From: a virus
Taxonomy: Duplodnaviria > Caudoviricetes
DNA: 58,221 nucleotides
Direction: 5' to 3' (one strand)
IMG/VR virus record: IMGVR_UViG_3300010413_000034
Coordinates: 1 to 58,221 of that record
Shown: positions 1,715 to 48,372 of the stretch, piece after piece
Numbering within the stretch: the stretch's first letter is position 1
Layout: each line of letters opens with the position of its first letter
Notes under the pieces: generated by a model
The model's input: only the letters and a program-made list of their open reading frames with translations
What the model was told of the DNA's origin: nothing
The model's database searches: none
Position numbers and translations under genes: made by a program

Positions 1715-3079
1715 GTGTCAGATATTGCTGGAATTGTACTTAAAAAGATTTTAGAAAATCCAGCTGATGCTTTAGACGTCTGGCCTAAATTAAAAATATA
1801 TTTTTTTAATTCCGATTATAATGCAATATTCTTTGCAATATCCAAATACTATAATAAAAGGAATAAATTACCGTCCTTTAATGATTTATATATAATAACA
1901 AGAGACGAGAGCTTAGTTCTAAAGATAAAAGCTTTAGAATTACTGCCTATTCCCGAAGATGTAGATTTATTAATCGCTGCTGAGGCATTAGCTGATGAAT
2001 ATACACAGGAAGAAACACTAAATCAATTATTTGATTTTGTGGAAAGAATACCAATGCTAGATACATCAGAGGTAAAGAAATCTCTATCTGATATATTAAT
2101 AGTATTGGATGAAAGAACACAAGAAACAGAAGAAATCTATAGGATGAATGAAGTTTACACTATAGATAAAGAAGAAATACATAGCAGAATTCCATTAGGA
2201 ATAAATAATACATTTGATGCAAATACTGGTGGATTATCATTAACAGAATTGATAATGTTGGGTGGAGCTAGAGGATCTGGTAAAACAATAGCTGCATGTA
2301 ATATAGCAGTAAATCAGTATATGCAGGGGAATGTTGGTTTATTTTTCTCTATTGAAATGAGATATAGGGAAATATTTAATAGATTTATATCAATACTATC
2401 CAATGTAAACAATAGGCATATTAGAAATATGAAATGTACCTTTGAAGATTTTATGAAAATAGCTAAAGTTAGAAAAGATATGTTTTGTGATGCAGAAGAA
2501 GTATTTGATGATTTTCTAAAGCATAAAAATTATGAAAAATTTGAAATAGATTTAATAAGCTCCAAAAAATTAAAACCAGATAACCAACTAATTATTGTAG
2601 ATAATCAAATGTTAACGCTTACAGAAATAGATATGAATATACAGAAATTTAAATCTATCTATGGAGATAAATTAAAAGCAGTAGTAGTAGACTATGTAAA
2701 TCAAATTCAAGAAACAGATATATATGATTGGAAAACACAAATAAAACTATCAAAAGCACTAAAAAATATAGCTAGAAAACATGATATAGTTATGATCTCT
2801 CCATATCAAATAGATTCTTCTGGTGAAGCTAGATTTGCTAAAGGTTTGTTAGATGCCGCCGACGTAGCGGCAATACTAGAAGTGCCAAAAGGTTCTGATT
2901 ATATAACATTTAATAGTACTAAAACTAGAAATATTGCCCCATTTTCATTCAATTCACCAATAAATTGGGATACTTTGGCAATATCTCCAGAAGATGCTAT
3001 AATAGACCCAGAATCTAGCGATAATAAAAAAGAGAAAACTAAAGAAGCTGTTGAGGATATAACTGTGCCATGGACGTAA
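1715..3079 (+). CDS. DnaB-like replicative helicase (T5 D6-like)
   Basis: Walker A GARGSGKT, FSIEM, VVVDYVNQ, ARFAKGLLDAAD. GTG start with an upstream AAGGA. Confidence 0.92.
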   Translation: MSDIAGIVLKKILENPADALDVWPKLKIYFFNSDYNAIFFAISKYYNKRNKLPSFNDLYIITRDESLVLKIKALELLPIPEDVDLLIAAEALADEYTQEETLNQLFDFVERIPMLDTSEVKKSLSDILIVLDERTQETEEIYRMNEVYTIDKEEIHSRIPLGINNTFDANTGGLSLTELIMLGGARGSGKTIAACNIAVNQYMQGNVGLFFSIEMRYREIFNRFISILSNVNNRHIRNMKCTFEDFMKIAKVRKDMFCDAEEVFDDFLKHKNYEKFEIDLISSKKLKPDNQLIIVDNQMLTLTEIDMNIQKFKSIYGDKLKAVVVDYVNQIQETDIYDWKTQIKLSKALKNIARKHDIVMISPYQIDSSGEARFAKGLLDAADVAAILEVPKGSDYITFNSTKTRNIAPFSFNSPINWDTLAISPEDAIIDPESSDNKKEKTKEAVEDITVPWT

Positions 3080-3930
3080 AAGAATTATTAATTAATAAAG
3101 GCATTTATCCATTATCAAGAAGTAGAGATTATGTTATAACTTGTTTAAATCCAGATCATGATGATAAACACCCATCATTAAGAATAGACAAATTAACTGG
3201 TATATTTCATTGTGTAAGTTGTGGGTTTTCTGGTAATATTTTTCATTATTTTGGAATAAAAAATAATAAATTAATAGATATCAGAGCATTACAATTACAA
3301 GAAAAAATACAAAAATTATTAAAAGTTAAAACCTTTTCTTTACCTATAGATGCAGTACCTTATAATAGAAAATTTAGAAATATAAATCCGGAAACCTATA
3401 TGTATTTTTCTGCTTTTCTATCGGAAAGTTTAATGCCTGGCAGATTAATTATCCCAATAAAAGATATATTAGGAAATATAGTTGGATTTCAGGGAAGATA
3501 TATTTATTCAGATATTGAACCTAAATATCAATATTTACCAGAAAATTCAACTATACCATTATTTCCAGCAATTATTGAACCTATTGATGGAAGTATTATT
3601 TTAGTTGAAGGTATATTTGATATGTTAAATTTATGGGATAAAGGATTAAAAAATGTTGTTTGTACTTTTGGCACAGCTTTTGGAAATACGAAAAAAGCAG
3701 AAAAGCAGAAAAGAAATAAAGAGAGGTTAATTCCTTATAGATATCAAGGAGTTAATAAGATATATATAATGTATGATGGAGATAAAGCAGGAAAATCTGC
3801 CGCAAATAATCTAAAAGAATATTTAGATGATTCTTATATAACAGAAACTATAGACTTAGAAGAAGGAATGGACCCAGGAGCATTTACAACAGAAGATGTG
3901 ACTAGATTAAAAGGTATATTATATGAATGA
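3070..3930 (+). CDS. DNA primase (CHC2 Zn finger + TOPRIM)
   Basis: CLNPDHDDKHPS...FHCVSCG, LVEGIFD, MYDGDKAG, MDPG. Confidence 0.92.
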   Translation: MDVKELLINKGIYPLSRSRDYVITCLNPDHDDKHPSLRIDKLTGIFHCVSCGFSGNIFHYFGIKNNKLIDIRALQLQEKIQKLLKVKTFSLPIDAVPYNRKFRNINPETYMYFSAFLSESLMPGRLIIPIKDILGNIVGFQGRYIYSDIEPKYQYLPENSTIPLFPAIIEPIDGSIILVEGIFDMLNLWDKGLKNVVCTFGTAFGNTKKAEKQKRNKERLIPYRYQGVNKIYIMYDGDKAGKSAANNLKEYLDDSYITETIDLEEGMDPGAFTTEDVTRLKGILYE

Positions 3931-6112
3931 TAAAAAGATAGCAGTTATTGAAAAGTATCCTACAAAATATAATTATGGGTCATTATTCCCCTTTCCAATA
4001 GAAAAGTATAGCTTAGTAAATAGTAGGCAAGATAAGGTATTAAAACGAGATATAACCTTAAATTTAGAAGAGTTAAAAAATACATATGATTATTTAATTT
4101 TAATTGGAAAAGAACCAAGTAAATTTGTTGGAAATATTTCTAGCGTAACTGAATATCAAGGTCATTTATTTGATAATAAATACTTGTGTTTAGTTAATCC
4201 TGCTGCTCTGGCTATTCGACCATCTTTAAAAAATGATTTTGATAAAGCTATATTTGATATAGTTAATACTATTAATGGTATTACTCATACTACTCAGTTT
4301 TCTGAAATACAAGGTCTAAAATCAGAAAATGAAATAGTAAAGCATTTACGATATTTACTAGAGCTGATAGATTCTGGCGAAGTTAATACTATTGCTGTAG
4401 ATACAGAAACATCTTCATTATATCCTAGAAATGGACATGTTCTGGGAATTTCAATATCTTATAAAAAGGAGCAAGGAGTATATCTAGATTCTTTAGAAGT
4501 CTCAGATTCTGTAGTTATGCTCTTACAAGAAATTTTTGATAAAACTATAGTTGTATTTCATAATGCTAAATTTGATATAAAAATGCTACAATATCATTTT
4601 GGCTTCACTTTTTCTAATTTTGAGGATACAATGTTAGAACATTATATCCTAGATGAAACGGAAGGTAGTCATAAATTAAAACCACTAGCTTTAAAATTTA
4701 CTAAATTAGGTGATTATGATAGAGAATTAGAAGAGTACAAAGCCAATTATTGTAGAAAACATGGTATAAAACAAAAAGATTTTACATATGAATATTTTCC
4801 TTTTGAAATAATATATCCCTATGCTGCATTAGATACCGCAGCTACTTTTGAATTACATTCAATATTTAGGCCTGCTATTTACAAAAATGATAAGTTAAAT
4901 AATGTATATGAAAACATTTTAAAGAGGGGAACATTATTTCTATTAAAAATGGAAGAGAATGGAATACCTATAAACTTAGAAAAAGTAAAAGAACATATTA
5001 TAAACATAAATGAAAAAATTAATGAACTAACAAAAAATCTATACACATATAAAGAAATTAAGGAAGTAGAAAAAGTAAAAGGGGCATTATTTAATCCTAA
5101 TAGTGTGGCCCATAAAAGATGTTTATTTTTTGATGTATTAGGTTTAAGTAGTAGTAAATTGACCCCTAAAGGTGAGTTGAGCACAGATGCCGAGGTATTA
5201 GAATCTTTGGCAGAACAGCATCCTCTAGTTCATATAATTCAAGAAATACAACAGCTAAAGAAAATTAAATCTACATATTTAGAAAAGTTTCTAACAGAAA
5301 CAGATTTAGATGGAAGATTAAGAACAAATTTCAACATTCATATAGTATCTTCAGGAAGACTTAGTTCATCCGGAAAATTAAATGCACAGCAATTACCAAA
5401 AAAGAACAAAGCACCAAAAGAATGTATAGAAGCTAAAAAGGGCTATAAAATAGTTTCACAGGACTTACAAACTGCTGAAATGTATATAGCTGCAGTTTTG
5501 TCCGGAGATAAGGTACTACAAAAAATATTTATAGATGAAGTAGATTATCATGGGTCTATGGCAGTATTAAAATTTGGATTAAATTGTCATCCTAACGATG
5601 TAAAAAACTTATACCCAACATATAGAGATAGTGCTAAAACAATTTCTTTTGAAATTTTATATAAACTAAATTATAACGAACCGGCACTAGAAAACTTTAA
5701 AAAGTTAAAATGGTGGCTAAAAAGTAAGGAAGAGTATATAAAAGAAAATGGATACATATATTCCTTCTTTGGTAGAAAAAGAAGATTGAAAGATGCTTTT
5801 TCATCTAATAAACAAGAGGCACAACATCAAGTAAGAAGTGGGATAAATTTCTTGGTTCAAAGTGTTGCTAGTGATATAAATTTATTAGCTGCTATTGAAA
5901 TGCAAGATTGGATAGAAAAAAATAATTATATAAATTATATGAAAATATTCGCTCTTGTACATGATTCAATACTAGCGGAAGTTAAGGATGAATATATTGA
6001 GTTATATACAACTAAGTTAAAAGAGATAACTCAGAAAGATAGAGGATTAAGTATACCTAATAGACCTATTGGAATAGACGTTGAAATAGGTACAAATTAT
6101 GCGTTTACTTAA
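3923..6112 (+). CDS. pol: family A DNA polymerase with 3'-5' exonuclease (T5-like), atypical motif B
   Basis: ExoI DTETS, ExoII HNAKFD, ExoIII YAALD. SGRLSSSGKLN, motif A DLQTAE, motif B RDSAKTISFEILYK, INFLVQS, motif C VHDS. Confidence 0.93.
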   Translation: MNDKKIAVIEKYPTKYNYGSLFPFPIEKYSLVNSRQDKVLKRDITLNLEELKNTYDYLILIGKEPSKFVGNISSVTEYQGHLFDNKYLCLVNPAALAIRPSLKNDFDKAIFDIVNTINGITHTTQFSEIQGLKSENEIVKHLRYLLELIDSGEVNTIAVDTETSSLYPRNGHVLGISISYKKEQGVYLDSLEVSDSVVMLLQEIFDKTIVVFHNAKFDIKMLQYHFGFTFSNFEDTMLEHYILDETEGSHKLKPLALKFTKLGDYDRELEEYKANYCRKHGIKQKDFTYEYFPFEIIYPYAALDTAATFELHSIFRPAIYKNDKLNNVYENILKRGTLFLLKMEENGIPINLEKVKEHIININEKINELTKNLYTYKEIKEVEKVKGALFNPNSVAHKRCLFFDVLGLSSSKLTPKGELSTDAEVLESLAEQHPLVHIIQEIQQLKKIKSTYLEKFLTETDLDGRLRTNFNIHIVSSGRLSSSGKLNAQQLPKKNKAPKECIEAKKGYKIVSQDLQTAEMYIAAVLSGDKVLQKIFIDEVDYHGSMAVLKFGLNCHPNDVKNLYPTYRDSAKTISFEILYKLNYNEPALENFKKLKWWLKSKEEYIKENGYIYSFFGRKRRLKDAFSSNKQEAQHQVRSGINFLVQSVASDINLLAAIEMQDWIEKNNYINYMKIFALVHDSILAEVKDEYIELYTTKLKEITQKDRGLSIPNRPIGIDVEIGTNYAFT

Positions 6113-6608
6113 ATTAGAAGATATTTCCTTTCCTGTATATTCACTTTCAAAAAATTATGAAAAGATATATACTGAATTTAATATATTATATATCCAAACA
6201 GCCTCCGGAACATATGTATTAGACAATAAGAATATGAACGGCAATACATTAGGTGAAAGAAGAGCAAAAATAGAAAATACTAAGCTATATAAACCTAAGA
6301 AAACGTGTTATTCAGTAGCGCAATTATTAAAATGTAAGTCTAATATATTTATAGATAATATAGGAACAGTTTTTAAATATAAAAAGACAAAATATGTTCC
6401 ATTAAAATATCATAAAATACTTTCGATACATTATAGAGAAAAATTTGGAGATTATTTCTTATTAGTTAAAGATATATTCTTTCCTATAGTTGTTAATTAT
6501 AGAGAAGCTAATACTTATAGTTACGCTGGTATTTTACATACACCTACTGGATATATTTTATACGAACTAAGTGAAGATAAAAAACCAGATACAAAAAGAA
6601 AAATATGA
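6099..6608 (+). CDS. conserved T5-like hypothetical protein (between pol and D10)
   Basis: Overlaps the pol stop and the D10 start. FPVY..., LDNKN..G.TLGERR and C-terminal KPDTKRKI resemble the syntenic T5 gene. Confidence 0.75.
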   Translation: MRLLKLEDISFPVYSLSKNYEKIYTEFNILYIQTASGTYVLDNKNMNGNTLGERRAKIENTKLYKPKKTCYSVAQLLKCKSNIFIDNIGTVFKYKKTKYVPLKYHKILSIHYREKFGDYFLLVKDIFFPIVVNYREANTYSYAGILHTPTGYILYELSEDKKPDTKRKI

Positions 6609-7870
6609 AAGCAGTTATATCTAATAGAATATATTTAGGAAAGTATGGTAATTTATATGAAGAATTACGTGAAAAACTAAAATATTCTATACCTTCAAAA
6701 ATACCCGGTAAGCCACCGACAACTTATTGTGATGTAACTAGAATAAATAAGGATGTATTAACTATACCTTGTGGAAGAACAGATTTAATACCAAAAGATT
6801 ACACAATAGTAGATAAGCGAACAATTAATAACTGTGAATTTCCAAAGTTTAAATATAAACTATTTGATTCTCAACAGGAAATTTATGACAGTGTGGACGA
6901 TAGTTGTGTAATAAATGCTAACCCTAGTTGGGGAAAAACATTTATGGGAATAGCTTTAGCCACTAAATTAAAGCAAAAAACTTTAATAGTAGTACATACA
7001 AAATATTTAAAAGATCAATGGGTACAAGAAGTAAAAAAATGTTTAGGAATAGATGCAGGAATAATTGGAGATGGAAAGTTTGAGGCAGATAAACTAATTT
7101 GTATTGCTCTTATTCAAACATTAAGGAATAATATTACTAAAGTAAATAAAGCTAATTTTGGATTAATAATAGTAGATGAAGTTCATCATTTACCAGCTAC
7201 CGTATTTAAAAGAATAATTGATAATTTAAAATCAAGATTTAAAATAGGATTAACAGCTACTTTATGGAGAAAAGATGGAACTCATGTGTATATACCAGAT
7301 TATTTAGGCACTAAAGTATATCGCGCTAAAGATGAGCGAAGATTAAAACCAAATATAGTAGTAGTTAATTCTAATATAAAATTAAATCAAAATAGTAATA
7401 TTCCCTGGGCAAATAGATTAACTGAGTTATATAATGATCCGAAATATCTAGAACTAGTATTAAATCTATGTGAAGCTCAAGTTTATAGAGGACATAAGGT
7501 TTTAATGGTTAATGATAGATTAGAGTTTCTATATACATGTGCAGAAATATTAGAAAACTTTATGTGTATAACTGGAGATACTATAGATAGAGCATTTGAT
7601 AAAGATAAAAAAGATGGAATATTAGCTACAATGAGAATATTTTCTGAGGGTGTTAATATTCCACCACTTAGTTCATTAATAATGTCAACTCCTATAAATA
7701 ATAGAGGATTATTAGATCAATTAATAGGTAGAATTTTAAGACAACAAGAAAATAAAATAACACCAGAAGTTATAGACATAGCTTTATCTGGAAAGACTGG
7801 AAAAAATCAATTAGTTCAACGAATTAATTATTATGTAGATATGGGTTATAAAATAAGGTATATAGAATAA
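6605..7870 (+). CDS. SF2 DEAD/H-box helicase (T5 D10 / UvsW-like)
   Basis: NPSWGKT, IVDEVHH, GLTAT, FSEGVNIP, QLIGRILR. Confidence 0.92.
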   Translation: MKAVISNRIYLGKYGNLYEELREKLKYSIPSKIPGKPPTTYCDVTRINKDVLTIPCGRTDLIPKDYTIVDKRTINNCEFPKFKYKLFDSQQEIYDSVDDSCVINANPSWGKTFMGIALATKLKQKTLIVVHTKYLKDQWVQEVKKCLGIDAGIIGDGKFEADKLICIALIQTLRNNITKVNKANFGLIIVDEVHHLPATVFKRIIDNLKSRFKIGLTATLWRKDGTHVYIPDYLGTKVYRAKDERRLKPNIVVVNSNIKLNQNSNIPWANRLTELYNDPKYLELVLNLCEAQVYRGHKVLMVNDRLEFLYTCAEILENFMCITGDTIDRAFDKDKKDGILATMRIFSEGVNIPPLSSLIMSTPINNRGLLDQLIGRILRQQENKITPEVIDIALSGKTGKNQLVQRINYYVDMGYKIRYIE

Positions 7871-18129: not shown

Positions 18130-19037
18130 TATATTTCCTCTATTTCATAATTTGCTCTATAATAATTAGGAGCAAATTCGGAATATTTTGGTATTTTTGT
18201 TAATTTTACTATCCCACTGTAATCTATTTCTTTATCTCTAGATAGATCTCCTGGGAAGCAAGACATAAAGAAATCTTTTCTTAATCCAACACTACGAAGC
18301 CCGTGCTGTATACTTATTCTACTGCTTTCTGGTATTGTATTTAAAGAAAATTGCCATTTTCTATATGGCGTTGAAAAATTTGATTTTAAACTTCCGGATT
18401 GCGTTCTATACTGTTGAGTATTCTCTTCCCAACTTAAAGAATGACCAAAAGATATATTATATGGAACCTCTATATATTCTCCTATAATTAATCGCCCAAT
18501 TTCAAAATAAGTAATTAATGAATTTGGAACATCTAGTTCCTCTACGGGATCATCTATAGATAATCGTATGACAAAAGATTTAACATTATAAACTACAGAA
18601 TCAATCCAATGTACTAAATTCTTAACTGGTTGAAATTCATCCTCCTTTATAACATCAAATCCCCAAGCATCAATACCCCATAGGAATACACCCCATGGAA
18701 GTATTTCGCTTGCTTGACTACCTTCAGTTATAAGTTGTGTTTCAGAACTATAAAGTAAATTAGAAAAACTAGTTTCCCCATATAAATTAATAGTATATCT
18801 AGTATTTAATGTAAAATTATGTGCTCCTAAAATTATAGCTGAAACAGCTTTAGAAGAGTTAAAAATTCCCTTTATTTCTATTGTGGAATTATCTACTGTA
18901 CGCATAACTTTAGCTTTAGATGAAAATTTCAAATTTTCAATATTTAATACTGGATCTGTAGTAGCTAAACTAGTAAATAATGAGGAAGTATCAACATAAT
19001 TATTTAATACAAATCTTAATTTAGACATTATATCCAT
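18129..19037 (-). CDS. tail tip / distal tail component
   Basis: AIILGAHNF, LPWGVFLWG, FEIGRLIIG, YRTQSGS...YRKWQFSL. Coupled directly after the tail hub gene. Confidence 0.65.
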   Translation of the reverse strand: MDIMSKLRFVLNNYVDTSSLFTSLATTDPVLNIENLKFSSKAKVMRTVDNSTIEIKGIFNSSKAVSAIILGAHNFTLNTRYTINLYGETSFSNLLYSSETQLITEGSQASEILPWGVFLWGIDAWGFDVIKEDEFQPVKNLVHWIDSVVYNVKSFVIRLSIDDPVEELDVPNSLITYFEIGRLIIGEYIEVPYNISFGHSLSWEENTQQYRTQSGSLKSNFSTPYRKWQFSLNTIPESSRISIQHGLRSVGLRKDFFMSCFPGDLSRDKEIDYSGIVKLTKIPKYSEFAPNYYRANYEIEEI

Positions 19038-22000
19038 ACCTCCAAAGTTACAAATTTATTTATAGGATCTTCATTAATACCTATTACTAATCCCTTTTTA
19101 CCAGATGAGAAATCAAATCTAAAATGGGTTATTTTTATTATAGAACCCACATTTATAGTTAGTGGTACAGCTGTAGCCTGTACACTATATATAAATCTTT
19201 TTTGTTTTCTTAATTGAATTCTTCTATTTGCCTCATTTAAAGCATCTTGTTTATTATATAATAATGTTTCCTGTACCTCATCTTCTTCTAGTAAAGGATA
19301 CATATCATTTATATACGTAATTGGGTTGGCAACATTTACAATCTTATATTCTGATGTAATATTTTCTAGAACTTCTAATTCTTGTTCTACAACTATACCA
19401 GCAAGAGCTCCTTTATCTTGAACAGTCCAATTTTTCTTATAGCTTAATTTTATATTCTTTTTAGGAATTTCTATGTCAGATAAAGTTAATCCGTTTTCTA
19501 GAATTTGATCTTCTGGTAGTTCTAGACTATATGGTTGTGTAGCTGGATCTTTAAATTGAGTTAATTGTACCAAATTATTTGTTTTATTAAATCTTATGAA
19601 GGCACCTACAGAAGAAGATATTTTATTTAATAACTCTTTTACCTCTTCTTCATCCTCTATATATAAGCCCATTACACTTGTATTTGGAAACCCATTTACA
19701 CCATTTGGATCAAAACTATCTGGATCAAGATTATCTATCGTAACACTTGTTTTCTCTAATAGTAACCACTCAATTAAATGTGCTGCACTATGTAAAACTA
19801 AGGAATAAGGATAAACACCAGGGGAAGTTTCAGCTAAAGAAGATCTTGTGGATTGTCCAATAACATCACAAGTAATTTGTTGTCCTAAATCATGCACTAA
19901 TAATCTAAAACAACCTTTTGATAAATCAACTTCATAATCTCCTGCATCAACTATTGCACCATTAGATCTAACTTCTGTAATAGCTTGTATACTTCCATCA
20001 TGTATTTGATATACATGGTTATATGCATCAATTAATTTAGGAGAAATATTAAAACAATATCCTAAACAGATAGGTGCTGGCGTATTTACAATACTTTCTG
20101 GTATACTAACTATATCTGGATCAAAAACTACAGGAGGAACATCTTTAGTATCTGCAGTAAATGTACTTGATGCTAAAATATTCTCTACATAAGATAATGT
20201 TATAGTATTTGATTGTACGGATACTGAAAGTATCTGGTCTTTGTCCCTAACATCAATGGTTATTTTATCAACACTACTAGAAGTAAATTTATTTATTATA
20301 CCATCAAATATTAATATAAATTGTTCTTTTGTCCATAAAGGATCTCCCAGATATATTTTTAACGGATGGCCTTCCCAACCATATTTAAGAAGTTCATCCA
20401 AATCTCCTTCTGGATTTAATAATTCAATCGCTCCAATAGTAGAAGATAAATCTATTCTAGAAGAAACTTCCGGAATATCATTTACTATTTCATCATAATA
20501 TATACTATTTACTGTATTACCATAAATATCTATAAAAGAGTCGCCCTGTTTCAATATATATGGAAAAGTACCAAAATAACCTACAGAGGTTTCGGTACCA
20601 TTATGATATCCAGCCTCTACTAAAATAATTTTATTATTATCTGTTTCTAGCCAATCTTGATTACCTGTTTTTACTAGGCCTAATAAAGTTATGGTGAAGT
20701 CTACTATTATTCCGTCTTGTGTAACTCTTACCACTATAGTATCAGACCAATTAACACTAGTAGTAATTGTATAAGTAATTATTCCGGTATTTGGGTCTAT
20801 AATAGCACTTCCAAGAGCTGGTTGGGCTGTAATACTATATACTTGAGGGCCAGTTAGTGCACTATATACTAAATCTGCAGCATTTATAAGAATTTCTGTC
20901 TCTTCACCTGGGAGCGCACTTATAGACATTGTAACATCTGGAGCATATAGCTGGGGTTCTACAGTTATATAGATATTTCCATATACTGGAGGAGATAGTG
21001 GAAATCCATCACCATAAATTTCATAAGTTGCGGTAGCAATACCACTATCTATAGTAGGAGTAAAATCTACATCAGCACCATTATTTATAATATTAAATGA
21101 GCCACCAAATATATTACTTAATGCTCCAATACTATATGTAGCAGTAGTTTCTGTTAAAAATTCCTCTGTCGTTGTTTCTGTAATTTCTTCTTCTGTATAT
21201 GTTTCAGTAATAATTCTGTTAACATTTACTACAATGTCATTACTTAATGGAGATGGTATCAATACTTGAAGACCAGTACCGGCCCCTATAGTATAAGTAT
21301 CGTTTGTTACAATTATTTGTGAATTCGGATCTTCTTCATCTTCTAAATATACATTTATTGTTACTGTTGCACTACTAAACTCTGAACTTGCATCTACTAT
21401 TTCATAAGTAAAGCTATCTTGACCAATATAATCTGTGTCTGGTTGATATATTACATAATTTGAATTTCTTATTACGTACCCATGATTTGTTCTTACTTGT
21501 ATAGGCGTAGTTTGAACAACATTATTTAACTTATATATAGTTAAATTTGTACCTATATCATTATTTAATACAAAAATATTAGTTTTAGAATTTATAGTAC
21601 CATCATACTTTGCATTTTGTGGTATTGAAGCTATATCATTATTAGCTTGAATTCCACTAATTTGAACATTAACATTTAAGTTATTTCCATAAGCAAATCC
21701 ATCATAAACAGTCAATACAAAAGAGTCAAAAAAGTTGCTAGAATTATCATGTGTATATTCTATCCCTGAACTAGTTATAGAAAGAGAACCATGAGCAGGT
21801 GCCACACTTTGTGCATATACTAAAGTGTCGCCATCAGCATCTGCAGCCCAGGCACTTCCTGTACTTAAACCTGTAGGAATCGATAATCCGGTTTTAGGAT
21901 TTACAAAAGTACTTCCACCCTTGCTAGCTTTCAAAAATACATTAGAAGCTGGTACAGGTAAAGTATTTCCTAATGTTCCTGAAACCACTCCTGTAGCTGT

Positions 22001-25000
22001 ATTATTTAACGAATCTCTTAAAGTATAAGTATATGAATAACTTCCAACATTTGATCCTGGATCAAATAATATTGTAGAGCCATTTGTTGTAACAGTACAG
22101 TTTAATGTATTCCAACTACCTGTTGGCTGCTGTATTGTCACTGTTCCACCAGTAGGATTTGTAAAATAACCTAATGCTAAAATATCATGAGTTATTTGAG
22201 CACTATTATGCTTTACAATACCAAAATCCGCATCTCCATCAATAGTTGCCTGAGTAATTGTTATCCCAGTAGTTCCACCAGAGGCTTGTGTTATATTATA
22301 ATTATCTAATGTTAGCGCACTTGTTCCTATATTGGTAACATACCAACCAGTATATGGTAAATTACATATTTCTAAAGTACCACCAGTTCCACCACCCAAA
22401 CAATCTATATTAGTTGGACATTGCATCCATCCAGAAACTCCACCTACAGCATTTATTCTATCTAATACACTAGTTTGTTTCCACCAAGTGCCATTCCAAC
22501 AAGCGTGTGTAATTCCATGGGCTGGATCCATTACCCAATTCCATAGATCTTCTTCTGTATCATTATCTAATGCAGAAGCACTACCTATAGTACTTTGTAC
22601 CAGATCACCCACATAATTATCATAGATATAAAGTTGAAAAGGAGTTGGACTTCTGCCACCAAAATCTGTATGTAAATCCGCCTCTTTAATAGCTCCTCCA
22701 TTAGCAACCATATAATCTACTAATTCAGGAATTAGTGTTGAACTAGTTCCTGCATCATTAATAAAGTTACCTCCTAAAGCATACCAATGATTTGGAACTG
22801 CTGCAACGCCTGCATCTAATTGACGCTTTAACTGTGCAACATACCCTTCTGGACTATAATTTGGATCAGAAGGCTCGCAGCCAAAGCCTATAGAAGATTC
22901 TCCTCCCTGTAAACCCTCAAAAAACGGTTTTCCATTCATATGAGCACCTACAGCCTGTATAAGTGCTATATATCTATCCATTAAATTAGAGTTCCATAAA
23001 ACCGCGCAAATACCTCTAATTATACAAACCCCGTCTTTAGTTTTGTGTGTAACCCAATATCCACCGCCATAAGTTGGACTTTCTAAGTAAGTAGGTAATA
23101 CAGTATTATTTGGATTATTTTCCTCAAAATGCCTATCCCTTAGTTCTATAATAGAATATTTACCTTGTGCAGCTAAATAGTTATAATTTTCATCTAATTT
23201 TGTGAAATCATACGCTGTTCCAGCATCATTTTCTATTTCATTCCATGCAATTTCCCACATTACACCAATAACATTAGGTTCACTAAATATCCAAGCCCAA
23301 TCTTCCTTAATTTGATCTGTCCAAGCTTTTACATAATGACCTGGATGAAAACTTTGCGCACCAGCACCACCAGGAGGTTCGGGCTGTGAAAATGTTCCTA
23401 TAGAAATATCATCTATTAAAACTTTTCCTATATTATTAGTTGGATCCCAATCAACTTTTACATTTATTTGGCCAATAGGAATAGGTATAGTCCAAGGACC
23501 ACCTAGTTGTGTCCTTAAACCTCCTGCATCAAAATGATTGACAACAATTCTTCCATTACCACCATTTATTCTAACTTCTATAGCTTCTGCTGAAGATGCA
23601 TCAAAGTCTGTAATATTAGTTCTACATGGAAATATTTTTATAGTATTATTTAAATCATTTTTAAAATCTAAATCTACAGATAATACTCTATCTGTAGTAG
23701 CTTTTGAATTTATATATGCACCGACATCTGCTGCTGTATGTGTTACTCTATTTGCACTTACAACTACACTTCCTGTATCTGTAGTTGGCGAAGTTGCTAT
23801 TCTATTTTCCATATTTAATGGAATTATCGTATTTATTGGCTTTCCTGCTGCGATAAGAGCAGCATTACCATCCATAACATTACCATTTATATAACTTTTA
23901 ACCCAAGCAACAAAATTATAATCTCTATCATCTATACCTTGAACTATTTCCTGAGCTGTTATTCCTGGAAATTTGTTATTTGTTAGAGCGCTGACAGTAA
24001 CGCATCTAGCCATATGATTCTTTGGTGGTGTGCGATAATTTGAATCAAATATTAATTGAGCCGTGGTTCCATCAGTGGTAGGAAAAAAATCTGGTTCGTA
24101 TTGCCCACAACCAGCACTATAATAAGCCGGTATAATTATGCTCTCTAAATCATTTCCATGATTTGCACCTATCATAGTAGGAATTTTCGGTAGATATTCT
24201 ACTGAGGCATTATATACTCTTTCTTCTTGTCTATACTTTTCACCATTACTTACAGCAATATCAAAATCCGATGGGACTATACCCTTAAAACCCTCTGCAG
24301 ATTCTGCAGTTATTACACCTACAATAGTGTCTTCATTCTGATACTTAATAGAGAATTGCCTTAGTAATTCAATATATCTATCTTGCACAACAGGGTCCCA
24401 AAATCTTGCAATAAATCCATTTTTAGTGCAAGCAACCCCATAATACCCATTTGTAGTTATACTTGGTCTATCAAACTGATAATTATCACTGAATCCATAT
24501 TTTTGATTAGTTAATATATATCTTGGAATAGTTCCTACTGGTGTTGTTATGCTAAAATCTCTATTATTAAACGAAACTATTAATTTTTTATTATGTGGTT
24601 TTAAAAAATTAACAAATAAATCTATCAAAGACCAATCGTATACACCTTCAACATTGTCCTCAAAATTACCCCAAACACTATTCATTAATACACCATCTAA
24701 TTGATCTGTATATTCTGGATCAAAAATGAAAGAATATGCATCTGGTATATTATCATTATCTTGTTGCTTTATAAAATGACCAGGTTGCCAATTTAAGGTA
24801 ATTGGAGTAGTGGGTGTGCTCAGATTACTTGGTCTATCTGTATGAATAAACCAATTATTGTCTTCTAAAACAGGTATAATTCCAGTATAAAAATCCCAAT
24901 TTGGATCACCATCAAATTTAGTATTCCAAAAAATAACATTACAACTTAAACTATTTATTGCAACATCATATGCAACTGCAGGTCCTGCACTTGCGATCCT

Positions 25001-28000
25001 ATCGGCTCGCTGATTTTCTATTGCTAATGGTATTCTTCCAGCAAATTCTGGGTATAATTCATATGCTTGAGTTTTTGGTAGTCCATCACCATCTAAATAA
25101 GTATCAAATAAATCTGGGCCAGAAATTCCTCCTCCAATAGACTCCATATTTTCAAAAATAGATAACATTCCTGGTTCATCTGAGCTAATAAAATTAGCTA
25201 ATTGAAGTGCAGGAGTTTTTGGAAAATGAGATGCTAAAGACTTTTCTGTTTCTATTAACCCTGTTAAATATTCCTGCGGTGTAGGAGTAATATCTGCTGG
25301 TGGATTAGATAAAGCGGTTTCATCTAAAGAAATAAATGAAATTCTATCATCATTATCATATGCTTCACCTAAAGCTCTGAATAAATTATCTACTTTTTCT
25401 CTAACCCATGGCTTCCAAATAGCTACCGCTAATTTTGGATCTGGAGTAGAGCTACCACTTAAATAATAATATGCACCAGGATCATTAGGGTGATCAGGAT
25501 TTGGTGGAGATAGCCACACATTATCCATTGCATCGTATACACCTAACCAATCTGGAGCTGCAGTATATTCTAATTTACTAAAATTATGCTCTTTAATTCC
25601 AATCATTATTAGGCTTCTTTTACCATTACCGGTCTGCCATAAAGATTGTACATCTGCCTCTATTTCTGAAAAGTCAAAAACTCCCTCGGTTGGCTCTAAG
25701 TTTTTCCAGAAAAACTTTAATTTTGCACCAACAAATTGATCATATTGAGCAATTTTATTTTTTGCATCATTAGTTTCTCCTTGCATTACATAATGCCCAG
25801 GATACCATTTTTTAACTGTAGAACTAGTAGTTCCAACAGAAGCTTTCCACGAATTTCCAGACACAGATTCAATTTGGCCATTTAAATAGCCATTAGTTTC
25901 AAAAGTATCATTAACTAATGTAGCTCCCGTCCCTGTGCTAGCCTGACTTATATTTACAGATACTGTTGTAGTACTACTTAAATCATTAATAGAATCATAT
26001 GCAGTATATGTAAACCTAGCTTCTCCTATAAATCCTGCTAATGGTTCGAAGTCAACTACAGTATTATCACCAGCGTTAATTTTTGTATTTGTTTGATGAC
26101 ACCCTATTCCAGGAATTACAGAACTAACTATAAGCCCGGTAGGAGGACTAGAACCATTTATATCTATATCATTATCTAATACTGCTAATTGTAGTGGCCA
26201 GGTAGTATTGTTAGGGTATGCGTATACATTTGGTCTAGCTAATATTCCTTCTACTGTTGCTGCTTGCCATGCACCTATATTTAAATAATTAGATAGACGT
26301 ACAGGATCCCCCGAATTCCATGTAATCGGAGAATCTACATCTATTTGATTTGTGCTATAATTTATTGCTAATATATTTACTGGAGAATTATTTCCAATAG
26401 TTATTATATCTGGTTGTACAGTTATTCCATCCACGGATGAGATAATCCCGCCTGTAGATGCTCCTCCATCATGAAACCAAGAAGCATCTGCTACTGTAAT
26501 TTTTGTCCCTGTTCCAGAATTTACTGTATTTGTTTCTTCTTCTGCACTTAAATAAGCTGGAGATGAAGAACTTATTTCAAATGTGTCTAAGGTTACATTT
26601 ATAGATGGACTACCTACAGTTCCTGATGTTACCAAATATGGCGAAAGAGAATTAACAAATCCAGGAGTATCAGATTGTATATTTCCACTAACATTCGTTC
26701 CAAATGTTGTTTCTAAATTAGTAATAGTATCTACATCTGTTATAGAAAATGCAACTTCACAATTTGCTGGCAACAAATTGCTTATAATTTTATTATTCCC
26801 AAACTTATCTAACCCTGCATAGGTAATTAAATCAACTAAATATATAGGATAAGACTTATACGGAGAAGATGTTAAATTAGATCTTGCATTTAATGGGGAT
26901 AGTACTACATTATTAACTATATTATTTTTAAATATATTTCCCGTTTCTGCTATAGACCCTGGCTTGTTGTTAGCAAGAAGACCCCATCCAGATCCATTTA
27001 TATAAGCTATTGTGTTATGAGATATTCTCATATTAGTAGCTGGAGCTGAAGCTGCGGATCCGGTAGTAGAAGTTATAGCTTGTCCAGCTTTGTGATCGAA
27101 AACAACATTTCCTCTTGCTATAGTTTGATTTCCAGATAGTTTTAGCGCTTCTACGTCTGCATTATCTATACTTCTGGCAGTATGTTGTATTACATTTTTA
27201 ATAAATCTATTTCTAACACCTGTATTTGTTCCTCCTGCTGTTCCTGAGCTGCCTATGTCTGCCCCAAGATTACCAGCATAATCTCCAGCCAGTAATTCTC
27301 CTATAGCAGTACCTATATATTCCCAGTCATTCCTTATAGAATTTTCTAAAATAAAACAATCATGCCCTTTAATATCTATACATCTACTACCACCCCAATG
27401 TAAATTATTCTTATACAACACTAATCTTTTTGCTTCTGCTGCGGAATTAGAATATATATGCACTCCAGTATCTGTTAATGTAAGGTCTGGATTTGTAATT
27501 TTCCAATTACCAACATAAGATAAATCACAATATAAAAACTGGCAATCTGAGTGTGGACCAGTTTCATGTATAGAACCTATTACTGATCCACCAGTATTTG
27601 CATATACTAAATGCTTACCTATACAATTATTGGTATTTCCAAGTACAATATTAGCTTCTGGTAAATTTGATGAAGGAGCCAAAAATGTACCGTCTAATTT
27701 AATACCACTTACAGTAACAAAATCTAACCCACTAAAATCTATGCAAGGTTGTGGTGCAGATGAAAAATCAGGAAACGATGATTTATGTGTTCCAGTAACT
27801 TCTTCATCTGCCACCCCATCTAATACATTAGCAACTATTCTAATTCTTGTAGTATCACTAGTGCCGCTTTTTACTGGCTTAATTCTACTAGTAAAAGATC
27901 CAGTTAAAAGATAGGCTGTATCTCCTGGACTAATATTAGAATTCATTACTGCTATTGAACACGGATTTCCAGCGCTAGAACTATTCCAAGCTGCGGTTCC

Positions 28001-28027
28001 GTTTTGTGATACCCAATTTGTTGCCAT
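19028..28027 (-). CDS. giant tail-tip protein: beta-helix + 3 glycoside hydrolase-like barrels + Ig/cadherin-like repeats + C-terminal hub domain
   Basis: Directly follows the TMP. N-terminal parallel beta-helix (PGDTAYLLTG, NNI/HNTI ladders, NIGAWQ), three (W/F)xPGH(Y/F) barrels, Big_9-like repeats (ANND, YQPDTDYIGQDSFTY). C-terminal ~540 aa is hub-like (PICLGYCFNISP, YQIHDGSIQAITEVRSNG). Confidence 0.8.
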   Translation of the reverse strand: MATNWVSQNGTAAWNSSSAGNPCSIAVMNSNISPGDTAYLLTGSFTSRIKPVKSGTSDTTRIRIVANVLDGVADEEVTGTHKSSFPDFSSAPQPCIDFSGLDFVTVSGIKLDGTFLAPSSNLPEANIVLGNTNNCIGKHLVYANTGGSVIGSIHETGPHSDCQFLYCDLSYVGNWKITNPDLTLTDTGVHIYSNSAAEAKRLVLYKNNLHWGGSRCIDIKGHDCFILENSIRNDWEYIGTAIGELLAGDYAGNLGADIGSSGTAGGTNTGVRNRFIKNVIQHTARSIDNADVEALKLSGNQTIARGNVVFDHKAGQAITSTTGSAASAPATNMRISHNTIAYINGSGWGLLANNKPGSIAETGNIFKNNIVNNVVLSPLNARSNLTSSPYKSYPIYLVDLITYAGLDKFGNNKIISNLLPANCEVAFSITDVDTITNLETTFGTNVSGNIQSDTPGFVNSLSPYLVTSGTVGSPSINVTLDTFEISSSSPAYLSAEEETNTVNSGTGTKITVADASWFHDGGASTGGIISSVDGITVQPDIITIGNNSPVNILAINYSTNQIDVDSPITWNSGDPVRLSNYLNIGAWQAATVEGILARPNVYAYPNNTTWPLQLAVLDNDIDINGSSPPTGLIVSSVIPGIGCHQTNTKINAGDNTVVDFEPLAGFIGEARFTYTAYDSINDLSSTTTVSVNISQASTGTGATLVNDTFETNGYLNGQIESVSGNSWKASVGTTSSTVKKWYPGHYVMQGETNDAKNKIAQYDQFVGAKLKFFWKNLEPTEGVFDFSEIEADVQSLWQTGNGKRSLIMIGIKEHNFSKLEYTAAPDWLGVYDAMDNVWLSPPNPDHPNDPGAYYYLSGSSTPDPKLAVAIWKPWVREKVDNLFRALGEAYDNDDRISFISLDETALSNPPADITPTPQEYLTGLIETEKSLASHFPKTPALQLANFISSDEPGMLSIFENMESIGGGISGPDLFDTYLDGDGLPKTQAYELYPEFAGRIPLAIENQRADRIASAGPAVAYDVAINSLSCNVIFWNTKFDGDPNWDFYTGIIPVLEDNNWFIHTDRPSNLSTPTTPITLNWQPGHFIKQQDNDNIPDAYSFIFDPEYTDQLDGVLMNSVWGNFEDNVEGVYDWSLIDLFVNFLKPHNKKLIVSFNNRDFSITTPVGTIPRYILTNQKYGFSDNYQFDRPSITTNGYYGVACTKNGFIARFWDPVVQDRYIELLRQFSIKYQNEDTIVGVITAESAEGFKGIVPSDFDIAVSNGEKYRQEERVYNASVEYLPKIPTMIGANHGNDLESIIIPAYYSAGCGQYEPDFFPTTDGTTAQLIFDSNYRTPPKNHMARCVTVSALTNNKFPGITAQEIVQGIDDRDYNFVAWVKSYINGNVMDGNAALIAAGKPINTIIPLNMENRIATSPTTDTGSVVVSANRVTHTAADVGAYINSKATTDRVLSVDLDFKNDLNNTIKIFPCRTNITDFDASSAEAIEVRINGGNGRIVVNHFDAGGLRTQLGGPWTIPIPIGQINVKVDWDPTNNIGKVLIDDISIGTFSQPEPPGGAGAQSFHPGHYVKAWTDQIKEDWAWIFSEPNVIGVMWEIAWNEIENDAGTAYDFTKLDENYNYLAAQGKYSIIELRDRHFEENNPNNTVLPTYLESPTYGGGYWVTHKTKDGVCIIRGICAVLWNSNLMDRYIALIQAVGAHMNGKPFFEGLQGGESSIGFGCEPSDPNYSPEGYVAQLKRQLDAGVAAVPNHWYALGGNFINDAGTSSTLIPELVDYMVANGGAIKEADLHTDFGGRSPTPFQLYIYDNYVGDLVQSTIGSASALDNDTEEDLWNWVMDPAHGITHACWNGTWWKQTSVLDRINAVGGVSGWMQCPTNIDCLGGGTGGTLEICNLPYTGWYVTNIGTSALTLDNYNITQASGGTTGITITQATIDGDADFGIVKHNSAQITHDILALGYFTNPTGGTVTIQQPTGSWNTLNCTVTTNGSTILFDPGSNVGSYSYTYTLRDSLNNTATGVVSGTLGNTLPVPASNVFLKASKGGSTFVNPKTGLSIPTGLSTGSAWAADADGDTLVYAQSVAPAHGSLSITSSGIEYTHDNSSNFFDSFVLTVYDGFAYGNNLNVNVQISGIQANNDIASIPQNAKYDGTINSKTNIFVLNNDIGTNLTIYKLNNVVQTTPIQVRTNHGYVIRNSNYVIYQPDTDYIGQDSFTYEIVDASSEFSSATVTINVYLEDEEDPNSQIIVTNDTYTIGAGTGLQVLIPSPLSNDIVVNVNRIITETYTEEEITETTTEEFLTETTATYSIGALSNIFGGSFNIINNGADVDFTPTIDSGIATATYEIYGDGFPLSPPVYGNIYITVEPQLYAPDVTMSISALPGEETEILINAADLVYSALTGPQVYSITAQPALGSAIIDPNTGIITYTITTSVNWSDTIVVRVTQDGIIVDFTITLLGLVKTGNQDWLETDNNKIILVEAGYHNGTETSVGYFGTFPYILKQGDSFIDIYGNTVNSIYYDEIVNDIPEVSSRIDLSSTIGAIELLNPEGDLDELLKYGWEGHPLKIYLGDPLWTKEQFILIFDGIINKFTSSSVDKITIDVRDKDQILSVSVQSNTITLSYVENILASSTFTADTKDVPPVVFDPDIVSIPESIVNTPAPICLGYCFNISPKLIDAYNHVYQIHDGSIQAITEVRSNGAIVDAGDYEVDLSKGCFRLLVHDLGQQITCDVIGQSTRSSLAETSPGVYPYSLVLHSAAHLIEWLLLEKTSVTIDNLDPDSFDPNGVNGFPNTSVMGLYIEDEEEVKELLNKISSSVGAFIRFNKTNNLVQLTQFKDPATQPYSLELPEDQILENGLTLSDIEIPKKNIKLSYKKNWTVQDKGALAGIVVEQELEVLENITSEYKIVNVANPITYINDMYPLLEEDEVQETLLYNKQDALNEANRRIQLRKQKRFIYSVQATAVPLTINVGSIIKITHFRFDFSSGKKGLVIGINEDPINKFVTLEVWI

Positions 28028-28036
28028 TTTTTCCTC

Positions 28037-31000
28037 TTATAAAATTTTAGCTGTAGAAGCTAAAGGATTTCTAATTTTATTTCTATCTCTAGAAACCTGT
28101 ATTAATTCTTTTCCTTGGTCTAGTAAATCTTCCTGACTTACTGCGACCACATCGGTAAGAATCTTTATTGCATTTATAATATCTGAATTATCTGAATCAG
28201 TTGTCGTATTATTTGTTATATTAGTACTATTAGCAAGTACGGATTCCCCCGATCTAATACTTTCTGCCGTTTTTCTAGGAAGTATAGTTTCGCCTTTATG
28301 AATCATTGCTAACTGATCTGCATCTACTTCTTGGGTGCCAGAAGCAAATGAGTTTAGCCCTCTTAATACTTCTAGTATTGGAACCCATGTTGAATCATTC
28401 AAACTTTGTAATTTATCTGTTATAAAATCTAAATGAGGAATTAGTAATTCACTTAATTGTTCTATATCAGAAACTAAAGTTGCTTGCTGCTGTTCCTCTA
28501 ATACATAGAGTATTGAATCTAATACTTGCAATTTTTCAATTGTTTCTAGTTGTAATGTGGATAAAATATCTGTCTGCTCATTTATTGCAACGGCTTCCTC
28601 AGATAAATTTATTCTATCTAATAAAGATTCATCAACTTGTTTTAGTGCGTCTGTGACACTGACAAATAAATCTCTATAACCACTAATAGAGAAAAATTCT
28701 GAAGCTATATTTAATAAAGTTTCTGCACTACTTATAAGATTATCTGCAGCTGCTGCCGATATATCTGTATCAGTAGAAAATATACCATCAATATTTTCAT
28801 AAAATTGTCTTGAAGCTTCAGCTAATCTTTCTGAATTAGTTAAAGGAGATAAATCCCCAACTAAAAGTTCATCTAAAAACTCATTAATGCTATCAGATAG
28901 TTCTTTAAATCTATTTATAGTATTTTGTATTTCTTGTTGTTCTATATTATATCTTTCTATAACTGCATCTTTAAGTTCTAGTACTAGATCTATTTGTTCA
29001 GTTATATTGGTAGGTACGGAATCAAATATTGTAAATAAACCTTCGAAAGTATCTAAAAAGGTTTCTTCGTCTATTACATCATTTAAGTTGGAAAATACAG
29101 AAAAATCTATACCAGAAGCTATAGAGCCTAATCCAGTCTGTAAAGATTTGCTTAATTTTTCTAGTTTTATTCCTAAGAATATTACATCATTCCATTGATC
29201 AAATGAAGATAAAAATGAATTAGTTGCTTTCTGCAGATCTATAGTTGCACTTTTTATTTCATCTAGAGCTTCTTGATTATAATCTTTTATAATTTTTAAT
29301 CTTTCTAGCCCAAAAATTTTCTCAACTAGTGTAATATCTGCGCCTTCATCTATAGCTTCTTGAATTGCGTCTTGAAAATCAAATTCTAAAGCTAATAAAT
29401 CTAATTCTTTTCCTAATAAGCCAAATAATTCTATTTGTCTAGTATATTGTAAATTTAACTCCTCAGCTCTAGAAGTTAATTCTTCTGCTGTTTCTTCTGC
29501 TGCTTTTAATGCCGCCCCTAATTGAATAACAATAGCTAATAAATCTGCTCCAGAAGTATCTATTTCTCCAGTAGCTGTATTAACTCTAGCAGTAAATGTA
29601 TCTGTAGCTAAGGCTAAATCATAAAATGCTCTCAGACTTTCTGATGTATCATCTGCTAAAGTACTTAATAAATCTTCTCTTCCAGCATTGGCTAACTCGG
29701 TTCTTAATTCAGAAAAGCCGACACTTACAATTCCTCTAGCTCTTTCTAATGCTAATTCTGTTAGCTCTGCTTCAGAAAATATACTACTTGCGAAATCCTC
29801 AAATAATTGATCTAATTCATCAAAATCTTTAAAACTAGAAGTAAAGGCTTCTTGCCAAGATGCTAGTATTTCTAATTTTAGTTGCTCAGAACCAGTTACT
29901 TTAGCTACATCACTTAAATCAAGGTTTATACTACTAAAAATATCACTTATATTTAATGTTTGTTCTGTTAATCTAATTAAAGTATCTGTTAATTCTTCCC
30001 CGGCCTGCGAAAACTTGGTAAGAAATGGAAGCGCTGTACCAATTACTTCATTGCTTAAATTACTAAAGAATGCTGCTATAGCATCTGCTTGTTCTTCTGC
30101 AGATTTTCCAACTAAATCTATTCTTATTGGATCAATATTAATAGTACCTAAACTGCTAAATAATTCTACTAAATCTACCTCTACAGCAGATCCAAAAGAA
30201 GAAATTAGTCCTGTAATTACAGTAGTTGTATTATCTAATGAGCTTTGTAGCTCTCTAGCTACGTCTGCTGGTAAATCTTTAAATGACTCTTCTAATCTTA
30301 CTTTTGTTTTTGATCCTATCCCAAATACACCGCTTTTAGTTTTAGTAACCTGTAAAACTAAGAAAGCCCTAGCCTCTTCTGCAGAAGCTATTATTTCATC
30401 ACCAACAAAAGTTATAGCTGCACCTAATTCATATCCAGCACTAATAAGCTCTCTGGTTTTGCTAGTACTTCCTAGCCCAAAGAAATCTGAACTTCCTCCA
30501 GAATTAAAGGATACACCAAAGAAATCAGCAACATCTAAAGTTTCAAAACTACCACCCGCCTTAAAGGAAGCTGCACCTAAGCTCTTAAAAGTATTACTAA
30601 GTTCAATAATAGCTAATTGTAAATCTCTATTTGCACTAAATAGTTCAGTATCTATTTCAACTAAAGAATCTATAGAATCTACTAATGAATTAGTTTGTAA
30701 ATCAATTCCATATAGACCTTGAGTACCTATGTTCTCTCTATATCTATCTCCTGCGCCGGCTCCTGAGATTCCGGAACTTCCAAAAGATACACCTATTTGA
30801 CTAAGTAAGGCTGCCGCAGCTGATGCCATTGCTGCCATTCTAGCAAATGCAGAGAAAGGGTCTCCTTCTCCTTGGGTTAATACAGCATTAACAGCACTGA
30901 CTAAAGCTAATCCTGTCTGTGCAACTTTTAGTATTTCTGCAGCTTTAGATCCTTCTCCTAAAGCTTGTGCGATGGAACCCATTGCACCAGAGGCAAATTC

Positions 31001-48026: not shown

Positions 48027-48039
48027 TTCTACTCCTATA

Positions 48040-48372
48040 TTATGCTATTGTTCCTTGTCTAATAACTACTCTGTCAAAATACGTCTCTTTAGAGCCATCA
48101 TCTATTTGTATTTCTAAAGAGGCTGGGCCTTCGTAAGTTACATTTATTGTATCTGCTGAGGCCCACTCTATTACTATTAGTGAATTTGCCCAATCTGCTC
48201 CTGTTTGAGACGGAGTACATGTAGTAATTGGAAAAATTTCTTGTTTATTTGAAGATATAATTTTTGCCTCTACTGTAGCTGCAGGATTTATAGTAAAGGT
48301 TTGTTCTTTACCTATTATACCCTTTCTTAATTGTACAGAAAACGATATATCGTCACCTGTTACTATATCCAT
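48040..48372 (-). CDS. small beta-sandwich structural protein (BppU N-terminal-like)
   Basis: IVTGDDISFSVQL, GADWANSLIVI, ASLEIQI. TAATG-coupled to the repeat protein. Confidence 0.55.
   Translation of the reverse strand: MDIVTGDDISFSVQLRKGIIGKEQTFTINPAATVEAKIISSNKQEIFPITTCTPSQTGADWANSLIVIEWASADTINVTYEGPASLEIQIDDGSKETYFDRVVIRQGTIA

Follow-up and report, generated by a model that had tools for sequence, protein, structure and literature searches.

The DNA analysed here, referred to below as the window, is the whole of a 58,221-nucleotide virus record, IMGVR_UViG_3300010413_000034 (Caudoviricetes), whose completeness is estimated at about 52%. Its left part carries a gene for a family A DNA polymerase (3923..6112, plus strand), and the fingers of this enzyme are the subject of this report. 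A first reading of the bare sequence, the original prediction, had described a motif B with charged residues in place of both glycines, followed by an almost complete loss of the O1 and O2 helices. The polymerase frame contains no stop codon and gives a translation of 729 amino acids (aa), in which an N-terminal T5-type domain is followed by a 3'-5' exonuclease and the polymerase. Pfam placed DNA_pol_A_exo1 (PF01612) on residues 151-318 (98.3 bits; cut-off 23.6) and DNA_pol_A (PF00476) on residues 367-726 (190 bits; cut-off 34.3). A Foldseek search with the predicted model returned the Pol I fold, with 8oo6, 1d8y and 6dsx as the best matches (E down to 7e-36) and a probability of 1.00 against Klenow, Bst and Taq. 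Profile and fold thus both assign the protein to family A. The exonuclease is of the DEDDy proofreading type, as it matches PF01612 and has the acidic residues and the tyrosine of Exo I-III.

The nearest cultured relatives of the polymerase were found in the T5-like phages (Demerecviridae), with 39-42% identity over 98-99% of the length; T5 itself (Tequintavirus) and the Providencia phage PSTCR5 fall within this range and have the same N-terminal domain. Full-length similarity that includes this domain, together with a T5-type gene order, shows the enzyme to be a T5-like replicative polymerase. It comes from a siphovirus that is itself T5-like, AT-rich and uncultivated.

Motif B was read directly from the codons. 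Positions 5624-5665 encode R568-DSA-K572-TIS-F576-E577-IL-Y580-K581, followed by LNYNEPALEN and then by FKKLKWWL, as first described. These codons (5624..5665) specify helix O, assigned to residues 565-580 by DSSP in the predicted model, and the four residues R568, K572, F576 and Y580 are retained. When the protein was aligned with Klenow chains using phmmer, E577 (5651-5653) and K581 (5663-5665) fell opposite Klenow Gly763 and Gly767, and gaps of 7 and 10 residues, 17 in all, opened right after the Y-K pair. When T5, PSTCR5 and metagenomic relatives were aligned with it in MAFFT, the deletion formed a single block directly after Y-K. From Y-K to GRKRR there are 35 residues in the window enzyme versus 52 in Klenow, and its connector is 17 residues shorter than in Klenow and in those relatives that keep the glycines and the long form, called canonical below; relatives with the short form are called deletion-type.

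The connector LNYNEPALENF (L582-F592; 5666..5698), as delimited by the alignments, the spacing and DSSP, stands where helix O1, the loop after it and some two thirds of O2 would otherwise be. Helix P (K593-N609; 5699..5749; DSSP 593-609) then runs normally into GRKRR (G617-R621), with L595, W598 and L599 conserved. On the other side of helix O lies helix N (D541-F551; 5543..5575; DSSP 542-551), which includes K550 (codon 5570-5572) and H543, the residue that we take to be the equivalent of the T7 helix N histidine that binds the triphosphate.

The rest of the active machinery is unaltered. In an alignment of 117 sequences the Exo I-III residues D160, E162, D218, Y300 and D304 were invariant, as were D514 and E519 of motif A and H680 and D681 of motif C, which aligned to the corresponding Klenow motifs. 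The residues on the dNTP face of helix O (R568, K572, F576 and Y580) were invariant both in this alignment and in 113 deletion-type proteins. The original prediction was correct on these points as well: motifs A and C and the exonuclease motifs are intact and there is no frameshift. The protein has the family A pattern R-x3-K-x3-F/Y-x3-Y and lacks the motif B glycines (F-G-x-x-Y-G) and O1 and O2 at their standard length. Motif C (V679-S682; 5957-5968) is V-H-D-S throughout the T5-like polymerases sampled, T5 and PSTCR5 included, where Klenow has H-D-E; S682 was invariant in the 117 sequences.

A structural model of the window polymerase was generated with AlphaFold2 using the 117-sequence alignment (pLDDT 92.7, pTM 0.88) and was compared with a model of a canonical relative, P0063, which is 51% identical and has the 52-residue form (pLDDT 90.6). 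In the window model DSSP assigned helix N to 542-551, a short return helix to 557-563, helix O to 565-580, a loop to 581-586, a five-residue helix to 587-591 and helix P to 593-609. In the P0063 model the corresponding elements were N 535-543, O 558-572, O1 576-584, O2 588-601 and P 603-619. O1 and O2 are thus 9 and 14 residues long in P0063, versus no O1 and a five-residue remnant of O2 in the window model. According to the models the window enzyme has no helix O1 and has lost about two thirds of O2, of which the last turn or so is left, in agreement with the O1/O2 region having been called almost absent.

Because the record derives from a metagenome assembly, the deletion might have arisen in assembly or in alignment, or the gene might be a pseudogene. 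The frame is intact, however, the catalytic residues are invariant and the same length is found in 113 homologues, while the helices are truly missing from confident AlphaFold2 models. The exact stretch was found in 19 of the 24 sequencing runs listed, from eight studies. Contigs from four runs of four studies, none of them possible sources of the record, spanned positions 5515-6056 with no insertion or deletion. The sole difference that they showed inside the feature was G5683A, a synonymous change (Pro587), seen in the contigs of two runs from two studies; this shows natural strain variation of a phage present in several sediment and soil metagenomes. One RNA run (X20) held a small share of the stretch's words. 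An artefact is consequently so improbable that it can practically be set aside, and we are virtually certain that the shortened fingers are a real conserved trait.

The distribution of the trait was then examined. Among the 121 closest proteins, which represent clusters at 90% identity and range from 100% down to about 46% identity, 84 combined SFEILYKLN with a spacing to GRKRR of exactly 35, and the remaining 37 had F-G-I-L/M-Y-G with 52-68 residues. FEILYK-type polymerases, for which a search had been proposed, are therefore numerous. Over all searches 113 deletion-type proteins were collected, all metagenomic, with 95 distinct 49-aa segments. R568, A571, K572, F576, L579, Y580, L582, L589, F592, L595 and L599 were invariant in these 113 proteins, and K581 was replaced by A or Q in seven of them. 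It is the deletion, and not K581, that defines the group.

To place the group within family A, 1.84 billion cluster representatives were scanned, giving 24,996 matches, of which the best 150 were inspected; the family-wide counts in this report refer to these. Of these, 105 had a recognisable motif B; the rest, 40 fragments or misses and five spurious pattern matches, were dropped. The Gly767 position was occupied by G in 92 of the 105 diverse representatives, and the Gly763 position by G in 70, by A, S or L in 31 and by E or K in four. The description of both glycines as near-invariant therefore did not hold for the first. The spacing from Y-G to G-R-x-R was 52 in most representatives and 57-73 in T5-like forms. 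It was 35 in only four, P0138 (FEILYA), P0146 (FKVLYA), P0170 (FKVLYQ) and P0181 (FEILYK), and these were the same four that had E or K at the Gly763 position. In these sequences, then, the first motif B glycine is the less strictly kept of the two across family A; the second, like the 52-residue length, is well conserved.

Other collections were searched as well. A back-translated motif had 21 matches in IMG/VR; 12 lay inside PolA genes, on contigs with 25-39% G+C, and the other nine, outside PolA, were discarded as chance. Back-translated FEILYKLN matched at least 120 stretches in 596 Gb of prokaryote genomes, and one among those listed was in a PolA gene, on a 2.5-kb contig (L136) binned with a Mollicutes metagenome-assembled genome; no host was deduced from that bin. 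With residues 556-605 as a homologue query 22 candidates were scored, and no census was drawn from that search. When the 70-aa segment 556-625 was compared with 50,697 deposited phage records no deletion-type match was obtained, the only hit being a gapped 34.7% match to PSTCR5. T5 and PSTCR5 themselves have FGILYG and a long O1/O2 stretch on alignment, so the variant is absent from these characterised T5-like polymerases. Neither of the two outcomes that had been named as refuting the original prediction, an assembly deletion revealed by reads and a variant common in characterised T5-like enzymes, was thus obtained. No description of an O1-helix deletion or of an FEILYK motif was found in the literature searched, which did not extend to subscription journals and supplements.

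The replacement of a glycine by a glutamate in helix O proved to be linked to a second change. Positions 550 and 577 were compared in the 225 proteins that showed both motifs (112 deletion-type and 113 canonical; the rows are related by descent and are not independent). In 105 deletion-type proteins position 550 was K or R and position 577 was E; in six the charges were reversed, with E at 550 and K or R at 577; and in one V at 550 (with R at 548) accompanied E at 577. Opposite charges were thus present at the two positions in 111 of the 112 deletion-type proteins. None of the 113 canonical proteins had a charge at either position, 550 being V, I, L, A, T, C, M or S and 577 being G, A, S or L. 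When 80 deletion-type sequences were compared with 37 canonical ones, the only columns that separated the types were 544, 550, 573, 577, 581 and 589 and the deleted block.

In T7 polymerase, H506 of helix N and R518, K522 and Y526 of helix O all contact the substrate (PMC5984650). As residues of both helices share the substrate, the helices should lie alongside each other with the same end at the substrate; seven residues beyond the histidine, position 550 would be next to about 577. Molecular dynamics of the Bacillus enzyme show motion of helix N forcing helix O to bend at Gly711, which is the same position (PMC4256020). Since 577 covaries with 550 as partners in a salt bridge would, the alignments suggest that E577 faces helix N and not the nucleotide. 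Both charges being swapped together is the classical mark of such a bridge, and a K550-E577 salt bridge joining helices N and O is, on this covariation, probable.

These results bear on the proposal that the pocket for template and dNTP is remodelled. The fingers are indeed remodelled, in a conserved and functional enzyme; the dNTP pocket itself, with its four invariant residues and with E577 directed towards helix N, does not appear to be. They bear equally on the proposal that the pocket is adapted to a modified or non-standard dNTP, such as dZ, dU or hydroxymethylated bases. Two motif B residues do depart from the consensus, and as half of the genome lies outside the record, base-modifying genes could lie there. 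On the other hand, the four helix O residues that contact the dNTP are invariant, as are motifs A and C, while the residue at 577, which changes in step with helix N, is K or R in some proteins. The genes present in the window form an ordinary T5-like set for replication and nucleotide metabolism that includes a dUTPase and a ribonucleotide reductase, and there was no PHROG match to a base-modifying enzyme in the window. Adaptation to an unusual nucleotide is thus very improbable.

The neighbouring genes were identified by PHROG matches, which showed that the left part of the window, on the plus strand, is a T5-type replication module. It begins with an NAD-ligase subunit and a D5-like regulator, which are followed by a DnaB-like helicase (1715-3079, +), a primase (3070-3930, +) and the polymerase. 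The helicase and primase were recognised by a pair of matches, to PHROG 19 and 47, and the order helicase-primase-polymerase corresponds to D6-pri-pol in T5. Directly 3' of the polymerase gene, at 6099..7870 (+), come a 169-aa protein (phrog_4386, the homologue of T5.123) and a D10-like helicase. The module continues on the same strand with a single-stranded DNA-binding protein (SSB), SbcD/SbcC, a RusA-like resolvase, a D15-like exonuclease, the dUTPase and the ribonucleotide reductase.

A separate protein could in principle supply the missing helices, as had also been suggested, or sit on the truncated fingertip. The T7 fingers do touch the helicase (bioRxiv 2026.05.20.726333), and the conserved 169-aa protein next to the polymerase gene is of unknown function. 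This protein and the D10-like helicase, like all the other neighbours, are however ordered in the same way in deletion-type loci, canonical loci and T5: from the ligase to the reductase the gene order was the same in seven deletion-type loci, six canonical loci, T5 and PSTCR5. Comparison of the seven with the six revealed no replication-module gene specific to the deletion type. A dedicated partner therefore seems highly unlikely.

The minus strand of the window carries lysis, tail and head genes, and several of its open reading frames (ORFs) were noted in passing. A 638-aa ORF (39821-41737, -) matches a head maturation protease (phrog_80, residues 4-338) as well as a major head protein (phrog_617, residues 7-602) and may be a protease-capsid fusion. 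At 19028-35062 (-) there are two adjacent very long ORFs, one of 2,341 aa that is tape-measure-like and one of 2,999 aa, of which the last 500 residues only gave a PHROG match, to a family of unknown function. Beside the terminase gene, at 45153-53093 (-), two ORFs (957 aa and 1,573 aa) had no PHROG match at E <= 1e-5.

The possible consequences of the deletion were considered in the light of what is known of the lost part in Pol I-type enzymes. Helices O and O1 of Bacillus Pol I enclose the pre-insertion site, a pocket in which the next template base is held and which the O-O1 loop shuts when the fingers close (PMC12529929), and rotation of Ile716 in this loop accompanies base flipping (PMC4256020). 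Strand displacement by Klenow needs S769, F771 and R841 (PMC10520511), and the first displaced base pair has F771 and R781 stacked on it (bioRxiv 2022.08.02.502465). In both the phmmer and the MAFFT alignments the window enzyme has a gap opposite F771 and no basic residue opposite R781, and the equivalent of R841 is kept as R638, which was invariant in the 117 sequences. As the deleted stretch holds the equivalents of F771 and R781, altered strand displacement or template handling may reasonably be inferred by analogy with Klenow. That the deletion has a functional consequence of this kind is a real possibility, for which we would put the chances at a little below even.

The account that we favour, with some reserve, is that of a naturally trimmed fingertip, held by an ion pair between N and O, with altered handling of the template. 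Helix O keeps every residue that holds the incoming dNTP, and catalysis and ordinary dNTP choice would be unaltered. Seventeen residues are missing, from O1 through the following loop to two thirds of the way along O2, with LNYNEP-ALENF in their place. The glycine whose small size allows helices N and O to pack together has become Glu577, accompanied by Lys at 550 or by the same charges reversed. The resulting K550-E577 salt bridge would fasten the moving N-O pair and offset the loss both of the O1/O2 buttress and of the glycine hinge. The pre-insertion pocket between O and O1 for the next template base would be absent in its Pol I form, as would the equivalents of F771 and R781 that pry the downstream duplex in Pol I. 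The 5' template would then be handled differently, and the enzyme's own strand displacement would be weak, with reliance on the phage's DnaB-like and D10-like helicases.

The relationship between the two types was investigated with trees built without residues 540-600, using FastTree on 119 rows and IQ-TREE on 34 rows. In both, deletion-type and canonical proteins were interleaved, with four changes of type, and a single deletion-type clade was rejected by the approximately unbiased (AU) test (p = 3.8e-5). Trees of residues 1-330, 331-539 and 601-729 showed five to eight changes of type each and no single clade, the parts being short; for the same reason no recombination breakpoints were drawn from them.

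Several observations weigh against the account of a trimmed fingertip with altered template handling. Each of the six charge-reversed proteins has its closest relatives among the other five; the charges were thus probably reversed only once, and the covariation would then rest on few independent events. Position 584 in the connector was hydrophobic in all 113 deletion-type proteins (Y in 74, L in 21, F in 16, M in 2), and this residue may act as a substitute wedge. The length of the O1/O2 region varies from 52 to 73 residues across the family, and trimming may therefore be tolerated without much effect. Finally, the interleaving of the two types on the trees suggests that the forms are interchangeable in similar replisomes.

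The last two points lead to a serious alternative, in which the trimming is harmless: in a helicase-coupled replicase the O1/O2 tip would be dispensable, and the deletion with its K-E pair would be nearly neutral. In T5-like polymerases no part varies in length as much as O1-O2, spacings of 52, 57, 58, 63, 68 and 73 being found in the canonical enzymes. Trees made without residues 540-600 intermix the types, nothing elsewhere in the protein distinguishes them consistently, and the gene order is unchanged. Against this, the spacing is 52 in most of the diverse family A representatives inspected and falls below 52 only in this group. The connector is strongly conserved, with L582, L589 and F592 invariant, and in Pol I the residues lost have a part in displacing the strand and in placing the template. 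Harmless trimming thus seems to us rather unlikely, serious as it is, and we prefer to retain a trimmed fingertip with altered template handling.

The interleaving of the sequences suggests either the exchange of a cassette between similar backbones or an error in the trees. If the former were true, a self-contained cassette of about residues 544-592 would have moved among T5-like lineages by recombination, giving a replicase without a pre-insertion pocket or wedge; this combined proposition is a speculative one, which we think doubtful. Such a replicase would be strictly helicase-coupled and would read its template unlike all studied Pol I-type enzymes, with, for example, changed frameshift fidelity or tolerance of bulky template bases.

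Comparison with known enzymes shows where the window polymerase departs from them. T5 and PSTCR5 have the same order of helicase, primase, polymerase, small protein and D10 helicase. They differ from the window enzyme in their fingers and also at the C-terminus, where they have a tail of about 60-90 residues and the window enzyme stops three residues after the last shared tyrosine (Y726). Andraos et al. 2004 reportedly assigned this tail a role in the processivity and strand displacement of T5 polymerase. Most metagenomic relatives, like the window enzyme (end of the gene, 6100-6112), are without the T5-type tail. In several cultured T5-like phages an intein or an HNH endonuclease gene interrupts the polymerase gene; that of the window has no interruption. 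The large fragments of Klenow, Bacillus and Thermus Pol I share with the window enzyme the fold and the catalytic, exonuclease and dNTP-binding residues, but have O1, O2 and 52 residues from Y-G to GRRR, in contrast to 35 residues and no O1. Klenow Gly763 and Gly767 correspond to Glu and Lys in the window enzyme, which has no equivalents of F771 and R781. The enzyme therefore departs from two usual family A features, the motif B glycines and the O1/O2 length, and from T5 in its C-terminal tail.

Two unusual family A enzymes offer further parallels. In the Plasmodium apicoplast polymerase (apPol) special behaviour has been traced to the O1 helix, which is one turn longer and bears a three-tyrosine checkpoint (PMC12529929); the window enzyme has undergone the opposite change, the deletion of O1. 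Human POLN has a natural charged residue at a site in helix O that is usually small or non-polar, and its fidelity and strand displacement are affected (PMC2879524). The change in POLN is at the A759/T664 position beside the catalytic lysine, where the window enzyme has an ordinary threonine, T573. POLN also keeps the terminal Y-G, which the same source terms perfectly conserved among family A enzymes (PMC2879524) and which the window enzyme lacks.

Helices O and O1 have a central part in Pol I-type enzymes, both in checking and placing the next template base and in opening the downstream DNA, and nearly all studied family A polymerases hold the O/O1 region at a fixed length. The charge swap between K550 and E577 provides a simple, testable prediction for polymerase enzymology, and the group may yield compact laboratory polymerases with unusual strand-displacement or fidelity properties. 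A large natural group of polymerases that works without O1, and with a compensating ion pair, would amount to a ready-made experiment on the need for this helix in family A.

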